DNA from: Candidatus Heimdallarchaeum endolithica
GTDB lineage: Archaea; Asgardarchaeota; Heimdallarchaeia; Heimdallarchaeales; Heimdallarchaeaceae
Assembly (NCBI GenBank): GCA_021513715.1
Contig: CP084167.1
Coordinates: 864,001-928,000 of the forward strand
DNA length: 64,000 bases
Reading direction: 5' to 3'
Below the pieces are notes generated by a model. It worked only from the letters and a program-made list of their open reading frames with translations. It was not told where the DNA came from and made no database searches. The position numbers and the translations under genes are program-made. Shown here in pieces: positions 59,345 to 62,046 of this stretch (positions within the stretch are counted from its first letter, which is position 1; each line of letters opens with the position of its first letter).

Positions 59345-59908
59345 CTAATTGATTTATTGTCAAACATTGTTTAGTCATTCATTTCATATTTTATAGCAAT
59401 ATTGATTTTTATTTGAGTATTTTTCTGTATAGGATCATAGTTTCCTTGAGCCATTGCTATAATAAATTATAGAGAAATAGTTTATTCAATAATAATAGTT
59501 TGTTCATCAGCACCTTTCTTTTCAATTTCACATATTTTTTTAACTATAGTAAAGATGAATGTCTAAAAAAAAATTTGGGACAAATTAAAAGAAAGTAACT
59601 ATTTTGGATATTTTTTCTTGTTTTTTTGTAATTTATTTATTATAGCTTCTTCTAAATTTATTCCTAGGATTTCAGAAAGAGCGAATAAATATATTGCCAC
59701 ATCTGCAAGCTCGTCAGATAAATTATTCTTATATTGCTCACTAGTTAATTCGTTAAATATTTCTTCATCTGTTTTCCACTGAAAAAGCTCAAAAAGTTCT
59801 GCTAACTCTATTGAAATAGATAAAGACAGATTCTTTGGTGTGTGATATTTTTTCCAATCTCTCTCGTCTGTGACTTCTCCCACCTCTGAAGAGGGTGGGC
59901 TTCTCGAT

Positions 59909-61120
59909 TTATGTTGGACATACATTTGTTGACCTCCATATCGACGGTACAGCCACTGCACCAATACTCTTCGACAAGTTGTTGTCTTGGAGATACTTTT
60001 TCAGGATGTTTCGTGCCCCGTTCTGGTCTGCGTTCAATGTTGTATTACAGTTTTTGCAGACGTATAGGCCACGGTGTTTCCTATTGCTTTTACGTTTTGT
60101 TCCACACACACTACAAGTTTGGCTTGTATATTGTTCGCTCACCTTTTCTACCCGTATGCCAGACAACCGTGCCTTATGGGTTATCTGTTTGGTGAGTTTG
60201 TTGAACGACCAACTGTGTAGTTTCTGTCCAGATTTCTTGTTCCAATGTTTTCCTTTCCTGATGTTCTTTATGTCTCCTATCACTATTGTTCCAACCTTGT
60301 TCTTTTTTGCCTCCTCCACCACACTCTTTGATGTAGTATGGAGTATCTGGTTTACCTGTTGCTTCTTCTTTCTATGCATCCGCCCTATCGCTTTACTGGT
60401 TTTCTTTCCGTGTTGTTCCATCGTTGCTCGTTGAACACGTGCTATTTCCTTATTGAAATAGTGTTGGACTGCCAATGCTTGTCCACCACTATATATCGTG
60501 GAGTTCCCATTGGTATCAACGGTTGTTGCGAGATTAACTATACCCAAGTCCACCCCCATAATTCCATCATCGCTTGTATAAGGTGGCTCTTCTACTTCAT
60601 ATACAACATGAACCATCCATTTCCCATCTCGACATAGGATGGTTGCCATCTTCGCTATACCTTCTATCTCCCTCCATAGTGTTAGTTTGAACTGGAGTTT
60701 CTTTATGCCTGTCTCTTTACGATATTTTCTACTCATACTGAACCTTATAGTGTCACCATCCAGTTTGAATTGTTGGTAGAATATCAATGGCGACAACTTT
60801 TCCTTGGGTCTGAACCCCGGGGGGTGTGCTTTATCATCGGTTTTACGCAGTCTATACCAACTATTATATGCTTCTTGAAGTTCCTTACAAACTCGTTGAG
60901 CCGTCTGGCTTGGTAACAGTTGATACCAATGGTTCTTCCGCAGTAACTTTTTCTGTTCATACCAACTTGGTATCTCCCCTGTCTCCTTCCATGCCTTCCT
61001 CCGCTTATAATTATCTGTGTTATACAACTTGGTAGCATAAAACCCCAAATCACATAGTGTTGTTTCTTGTTTGGGTGTTGGATATATTCGATACTTGATA
61101 CACTGCTTCAAATATATCAC
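59909..61120 (-). CDS. tnpB: RNA-guided endonuclease TnpB (rearranged RuvC-II type)
   Basis: KYRIYPT, RuvC-I GVDLG, IVIGD, VSEQYTSQTCSVC, CKNC and RuvC-III NADQNGARNI motifs. Confidence 0.93.
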   Translation of the reverse strand: MIYLKQCIKYRIYPTPKQETTLCDLGFYATKLYNTDNYKRRKAWKETGEIPSWYEQKKLLRKNHWYQLLPSQTAQRVCKELQEAYNSWYRLRKTDDKAHPPGFRPKEKLSPLIFYQQFKLDGDTIRFSMSRKYRKETGIKKLQFKLTLWREIEGIAKMATILCRDGKWMVHVVYEVEEPPYTSDDGIMGVDLGIVNLATTVDTNGNSTIYSGGQALAVQHYFNKEIARVQRATMEQHGKKTSKAIGRMHRKKKQQVNQILHTTSKSVVEEAKKNKVGTIVIGDIKNIRKGKHWNKKSGQKLHSWSFNKLTKQITHKARLSGIRVEKVSEQYTSQTCSVCGTKRKSNRKHRGLYVCKNCNTTLNADQNGARNILKKYLQDNNLSKSIGAVAVPSIWRSTNVCPT

Positions 61121-61888
61121 ACTCCCTTCTGTTCTTCAATATATTTCTGAATGGTCTTATCCAATACGTGACCGTGAGTTGATATAAAATATCTCCATGT
61201 CCATAGTGTTGGCAATCGTGTAGTCAGTTCTTTGAACTCTCTACGAAGTTCGTGTGAAGTATAGCCCTTTATCTTGCCAATTATCTTATTCGGCGTTAAT
61301 TCAGGGTCGCCCTGTATGAATAGATGAACATGGTCTGGCATAACCTCCAATGTAATAACCTTGCAACCCATCATCTCTGCTCTCTCATATACCAATTCTT
61401 TCAACCTATCTGCCACATCTCCAACCAATACCTTCCTACGATATTTAGGGCACCATACAAAATGGTATCCTATGAAATGGACGTTTGTGAGGTTCGCATC
61501 ATATCCCGATGAGTCGAAATTTTAATTAATTTCTTCAGGACTCTACCCAATCAGTCAACAAATATGTCGTAATTTTGAAGACTGGTTTAAGAGAACATGA
61601 AAGACACAGTCTTAATTTAGTTCTCTAATGGGTTCATCTCCTGATCCAGGGCACTCATAATTCCCACAGGGAAGACCGGGTGTCGTAGGAATGAAACCTA
61701 CGTCTTTAAGCATCTAGCTCAAGACAAATAATCAATGAGAATTGAGTATATTAAGATCACTGAAAAGTTGTGACGCTCACCAATATCTTGCATTCTTTAT
61801 TATTGAAATGTGATTCTGATTGTTATTGGTTTAATAACTCCTCTAACTAAAAATTTAGCTTTTTACGTAAAAAAGAATTCTATGGCAT
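61117..61888 (-). pseudogene. tnpA: IS200-type Y1 transposase TnpA interrupted at codon 2-3 by a 376-bp insert
   Basis: Removing 61505-61883 yields 130 aa: MPYDANLTNVHFIGYHFVWCPKYRRKVL...DHVHL...KG..S...LW...YIEEQ. Confidence 0.88.
61505..61880. mobile_element. 376-bp non-coding, TIR-less structured insertion flanked by TAT direct repeats
   Basis: TAT at 61502-61504 and 61881-61883; no ORF of 60 aa or more; many stem-loops; excision restores tnpA exactly. Confidence 0.8.
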
Positions 61889-62046
61889 ATTATAGTATAT
61901 GGTTCCCACCCCATATAAGTGGTTCTATCTCGCTCTCATCCCACGACTAAAGCCGTGGGGTTTCCCGCTCTCGTCTCTAAATTCCACGATTATTTTAGTC
62001 AACTCTTCAATATTTGTCAATTTAATCAAAATAAAAAAGAGAAGGG

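Follow-up and report, generated by a model that had tools for sequence, protein, structure and literature searches.

The question raised by this locus is why an IS605 element begins with the same nine nucleotides that open the guide of its own TnpB. The element is 2107 bp long, carries tnpA and tnpB, and lies inside a MazG-like gene in the window, that is, the whole 64,000-nucleotide stretch of Candidatus Heimdallarchaeum endolithica DNA analysed here. All its features are on the minus strand. The left side reads TTTAG (61981-61977), AGACGAGAG (61976-61968) and then CGGGAAAC; the right side reads TCAC (59873-59870), AGACGAGAG (59869-59861) and then AGATTGG. TTTAG is host DNA and serves as the left cleavage motif of TnpA and as the predicted TAM of TnpB. 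The right host flank (59850-59869) is the predicted guide, its position being taken from the published model (10.1101/2023.03.14.532601), and its first nine nucleotides are those that recur at the left junction. A sequence-only reading had proposed these boundaries, the direct repeat and the TAM. The boundaries and the repeat were reproduced, and TTTAG as the predicted TAM agrees with the left ends of relatives and with guide-target covariation.

Both ends of the element were placed independently of the repeat. In relatives with 55-70% TnpB identity the right end is TCAC and the left end follows TTTAG or TTAG; by this comparison the right end of our element is precise. The left end contains the candidate guide tetranucleotide AAAC (61960-61963), analogous to the AAAG/TTAC pair of IS608 (PMC5934647), and a subterminal hairpin (61940-61959) identified by folding and pattern match and conserved in relatives. 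In 40 of 45 related left ends the AAA-X guide and the target tetramer have complementary last bases, a rule familiar from IS608 (PMC5934647), and therefore AAAC specifies TTAG in this element. Since it does, the left copy of the nine-mer is inside the element. The element stands 3' of the tetramer that matches its left guide, has subterminal hairpins and lacks terminal inverted repeats. The element first entered the MazG-like gene canonically, after TTTAG. The covariation of AAA-X with TTA-X' spans all four bases (40/45; L023-L043, L314-L351, L381, L401), and the family of covarying ends is widespread in archaea and viruses.

The interrupted gene encodes a MazG-like nucleotide pyrophosphohydrolase. 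Its 5' part (61977-62029) was delimited from intact alleles, and its 3' part (59599-59869; Pfam PF12643) is 97% identical to the same-genus genome G001. Intact alleles (P0126, P0129) encode 107 amino acids. Empty alleles in G001 (L002) and in L310 contain a single nine-mer, in frame, within the MazG-like gene; the filled allele is thus a true duplication of nine nucleotides. The 3' part is in frame with start codons inside the right end of the element (59599-59964), and the resulting ORFs of 108-121 amino acids are annotated by databases. One filled allele of the sister background described below (L058) has an 18-nucleotide deletion in the 3' part of the gene, which suggests decay.

The simplest explanation for a direct repeat is target site duplication, and the sequence-only reading had listed a TSD-like repeat among its possibilities. 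The repeat does flank the element exactly as a 9-bp TSD would. However, about 30 family members with both ends available show no match of at least 5 nucleotides between left end and right flank and have no TSD, and no repeat was found in about 60 haloarchaeal-type elements (62 pairs), among them a multicopy family with constant left ends. Across both sets, then, none of about 90 other elements has the repeat; this rejects a TSD and refutes that proposal at the level of the family. Moreover, the left copy replaces the start of the left end and is not added to it. Copies do not bring a fixed-length duplication of their own, as they would in a TSD-forming (DDE-type) system. This explanation retains scarcely any probability, and the nine-nucleotide duplication of this copy is read as secondary.

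These comparisons rest on related and other elements of the IS605 type. A search for further copies of the element itself, which the same reading had wanted to align, was fruitless in this genome and in 60 relatives, where the nearest other TnpBs are 70% identical; some 90 related or other IS605-type elements were compared, and none carries the repeat. Matching between 161 right ends and their own left ends does not exceed that with shuffled partners, and further archaeal and viral loci show no excess of left-end/flank matches either. A search of viral sequences for the left-end motif yielded chance hits only. A match of 22 or more nucleotides at L289 (G531:C1:2806530-2808830) was rejected, as it lies on an N-gapped scaffold with filled and empty copies of the site; this scaffold may reflect allele heterogeneity of that sample or misassembly. 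In two haloarchaeal-type elements, L116 and L143, the left-end region is tandemly duplicated over about 44 and 96 bp, respectively. The genome also contains about 19 TnpB-like elements (450-525 amino acids; for example C1:1138724-1140559, 133386-135237, 709111-710904 and 2688066-2689558). Terminal inverted repeats and CAT(G) mark their ends; they contain no transposase and are not of the IS200/IS605 type. As a different type of element, they could not be used as controls.

A second possibility is chance: the element may natively start with this nine-mer and have landed on a matching site. The first 4-5 nucleotides of the family left end are hypervariable, 7 of the 9 target nucleotides agree with the left-end consensus, and the case was picked out of a very large scan. 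However, apart from this site, none of the 17,098 TTTAG sites of the genome matches the guide over 7 or more nucleotides, and the Markov expectation of the nine-mer is 1.2e-6 per site. Over the 42,684 archaeal IS200/IS605 elements (PMC13343696) our arithmetic gives about 0.05 expected chance cases, or 0.16 with equal base frequencies. A native origin would also require an unusual base at position -4, counted back from CGGG. In 50 related left ends this base is T (40), C (5) or G (5) and never A, while the element has A, as does the target. Thus chance is very unlikely, and the left end looks overwritten up to the common GAG, since the A at -4 is present in the target and in none of the 50 relatives. 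The nine nucleotides at 61968-61976, putatively host-derived by their identity to the right flank and by the -4 base, end in GAG, a triplet also present in the presumed native left end. Linker length and first base were considered as further diagnostics and dropped: linkers in the wider family are 8-12 nucleotides long and 4 of 43 start with A. An initial A and a nine-nucleotide linker are both native within the family, and the diagnostic features are the -4 base and the full match only.

The tnpA gene (61117-61888) encodes a Y1 HUH transposase (PF01797, 2e-28) with the HUH and tyrosine motifs. A 370-bp MITE (61512-61881), flanked by a CAT duplication (61509-61884), breaks it after codon 2, and the gene reads through 132 amino acids once the MITE and one CAT are removed. 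This is the only tnpA of the genome; no tnpA at all was found in G001, so that neither circular genome yielded an intact TnpA. The MITE is multicopy: the genome has some 20 related copies, of which about 16 are full and several partial, and G001 has it too. It has a structured core, and its ends resemble those of the TnpB elements bounded by terminal inverted repeats in this genome. A putative archaeal TATA-like box (61913-61919) lies about 30 nucleotides before the tnpA start codon, and relatives have TTTATA or TTATA in the same place. A sigma-70 promoter scan was set aside, as it tells little about an archaeal host.

The tnpB gene (59909-61120), downstream of tnpA, is open and encodes 403 amino acids with matches to PF01385, PF07282 and PF12323 and to TnpB and Cas12f structures in the PDB. 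The RuvC residues D191 and D365 and a C4 zinc finger are present, glycine stands in place of the RuvC-II glutamate, and an alternative glutamate, E329, is found, as expected for the known class with a rearranged RuvC-II motif (PMC10691335). The alternative glutamate motif occurs in 99 of 119 homologues. By its motifs, the catalytic set of TnpB is complete and rearranged. An alignment also predicts an omega-RNA scaffold with the right end (59870-60035, the 5' limit being approximate), including a right hairpin (59879-59899) and the terminal TCAC. Compensatory changes are seen in 19 of its 31 predicted pairs; an Rfam search gave no match for this RNA.

Four other assemblies, L058, L059, L063 and L062 (right part), have this element at the same site, again with this MITE and this left end. 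Their flanks differ by about 1% from G001; from the window they differ by 6.3% on the left and by 1.8-2.4% on the right. The element in these sister-background alleles differs from that of the window at 8-9 of 2107 nucleotides (0.4%). At four-fold degenerate sites, tnpB has 1 difference in 150, compared with 24 in 128 in the neighbouring aminotransferase gene. Published genomes of the genus, Ca. Heimdallarchaeum aukensis and Ca. H. endolithica, have an average nucleotide identity of 88% (PMC8813620). Markers of the host lineage are kept up to -12 on the left of the junction and +28 on the right. At base -9 every filled allele has G, as do empty alleles of the window type, whereas both G001-type empty alleles have A; this base travelled with the element, and the co-conversion marker is a single SNP. 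Read most simply, these data mean that gene conversion over a very short tract carried the element from the window lineage to the sister background; the direction is indicated by that one SNP. Assembly chimerism seems unlikely, given four samples, private SNPs in the element and only 17-20 nucleotides in common at the left junction. In L063 (GCA_054384295.1) the already broken tnpA has a further 52-bp deletion. In a lineage close to the window, four empty alleles (L308, L309, L311 and L312) have G instead of A at guide position +1, the first base after TTTAG, and the change is synonymous. These alleles would mismatch the TnpB seed and may be resistant, or the change may be a coincidence.

The occurrence of one site in two backgrounds could also follow from biased target choice by TnpA, with extended similarity between left end and target leading to repeated independent insertions in both species. 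Some precedent exists in IS608, whose left end and target share a +1 base preference and which can be retargeted by extended pairing (PMC5934647). However, the known retargeting depends on complementarity upstream of the tetramer, not on identity downstream of it (PMC5934647), and the match here is one of identity. About 90 elements show no excess of such matches, tnpA is broken in both backgrounds with no other TnpA found in either circular genome, and transposition cannot move the flanking base -9 together with the element. Homology-biased target choice, also raised by the sequence-only reading, is accordingly unsupported, and we assign it a very small probability. The pattern suggests that this copy spreads by homing rather than by jumping.

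We consider it probable that the first nine nucleotides of the left end were overwritten by the target during homing repair, and that the same copy later homed into the sister background. Neither this origin nor the presence of the copy in a second species figured in the sequence-only reading. The canonical insertion of an ordinary IS605 element came first. An empty allele would afterwards have been cut by TnpB, guided by the right flank. Such a cut falls downstream of the TAM and would leave surplus target sequence on the left broken end only, on the 3' strand. In the archaeal SisTnpB1 the non-target strand is cut 15-18 nucleotides from the TAM (10.1101/2023.03.06.531077). Repair of such a cut predicts the left-only polarity and left scars of up to that length. 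The left 3' tail, incompletely trimmed, may have paired with the left end of the element at the common GAG and primed copying of the element, a pairing that the AGA.G.GAG likeness of the target to the family consensus would assist. The native first 9-10 or so nucleotides would thereby be replaced by nine nucleotides of the target, giving a left-only duplication with the guide, the hairpin and the right end intact. The copy with the broken tnpA would then have been copied into the same site of the sister-species background with very short co-conversion, again presumably after a TnpB cut. That TnpB can restore its element through recombination is established (10.1101/2023.03.14.532601).

The main rival to this scenario is a scar of the same kind made without TnpB: the filled and empty alleles may have undergone gene conversion or template switching during replication, or a TnpA integration at one end only may have been repaired, with a crossover at the GAG microhomology. 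It would suffice that both alleles met in one cell, the resemblance of target and consensus left end (7/9) would help, and the enzyme that made the break cannot be read from sequence alone. However, by itself such an event leaves the left-only polarity unexplained, as well as the gain by a second species of a gene-disrupting 2.1-kb insert with host markers only 12 and 28 nucleotides away. We regard it as unlikely, and overwriting in the repair of an RNA-guided cut as the most likely origin of the left end. About 90 paired ends and 161 right ends yielded no second scar, so that scarring must be rare or limited to a lineage.

The repeated nine nucleotides create a partial self-target. Of 16 guide positions, 1-9 and 11 find a match at the left junction; on paper, as had been noticed from the sequence, there is a TAM and nine matching nucleotides, followed by one match in the next seven positions. 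Binding of TnpB to its own left junction is plausible by analogy with published systems. TldR repressors function with a seed of about 6 nucleotides and 9-nucleotide guides (10.1101/2023.11.30.569447), and a dead TnpB needs little of a seed match to bind TAM sites. Editing by the Sulfolobus TnpB7 takes 13-14 bp (PMC11043419), and nine nucleotides should therefore allow binding with little cutting. SisTnpB1 tolerates blocks of mismatches beyond +10; still, efficient cutting of the left junction appears unlikely from these precedents.

One possibility is that such binding was selected as autoregulation, TnpB on its own left end repressing the element. However, the match exists at one site only and would be lost upon transposition as the guide changes, tnpA is already broken, and TnpB retains a nuclease-type active site. 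The closeness to the tnpA promoter, on which the sequence-only reading had built, holds in part: the TATA-like box lies about 43 nucleotides past the 16-nucleotide protospacer without overlap, and tnpA itself is interrupted by the MITE. Binding without cutting thus survives as a plausible side effect, while an autoregulatory function is unsupported and, in our estimate, highly improbable. Under the preferred homing-repair origin the partial self-target would be a by-product of the scar, and the locus reveals no new regulatory system.

Laboratory work has demonstrated TnpB homing; its role in nature is mostly inferred. This locus is a natural record of a transposase-broken element at one site in two species: the limits of conversion are tight, filled alleles occur alongside empty ones, and the place of the left-only scar would be set by the position of the TnpB cut. 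A literature search of incomplete coverage found no paper on overwriting or scars of left ends or on natural cross-species homing by TnpB. If the scenario is true, such scars are a countable genomic signature of TnpB activity, and short direct repeats at the ends of IS605 elements should not be taken for TSDs. A wider form of it is more doubtful and is offered tentatively: IS605 elements that lack TnpA may spread between archaeal species by TnpB homing only, imprecise repair may time and again rewrite the linker of the left end with target sequence so that its hypervariability partly records past targets, and newly scarred copies may titrate or bind their own TnpB.

The element is an IS605-group member, and it would work in the manner of published homing by TnpB. 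It shares with IS608, ISDra2 and ISGst (PMC5934647, 10.1101/2023.03.14.532601) a Y1 TnpA together with TnpB, subterminal hairpins, pairing of the left guide with the target tetramer, a TCAC right end, a predicted right-end omega-RNA and insertion 3' of an AT-rich motif. It differs from them in the nine-nucleotide duplication in place of the start of the left end, the tnpA broken by a MITE and the rearranged RuvC-II. In the latter it resembles, by its motifs, TnpBs of the RIIr-5 type (PMC10691335), which have glycine for the RuvC-II glutamate and an alternative glutamate before the zinc finger. As with TldR (10.1101/2023.11.30.569447), a TAM and a short seed beside a promoter could be bound. 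However, TldRs are nuclease-dead and their guide and target are fixed and conserved, whereas this TnpB has the full catalytic set, its RuvC is not inactivated, and the match is a single-site accident, relatives occupying unrelated sites without a self-match.

A further likeness is to restorative TnpB homing and plasmid gene drives (10.1101/2023.03.14.532601; 10.1101/2025.02.20.638934; review PMC13565253). Here, too, a predicted structured right-end RNA is followed by a guide derived from the flank, and the RuvC triad appears to be present; the guide matches the empty site beside the predicted TAM, recombination would copy the element into the empty allele, and TnpA seems dispensable. However, the published experiments dealt with sister chromatids or plasmids in the laboratory, whereas the present pattern comes from natural populations and crosses a species boundary; its co-conversion tract can be measured, and its left junction is imprecise.
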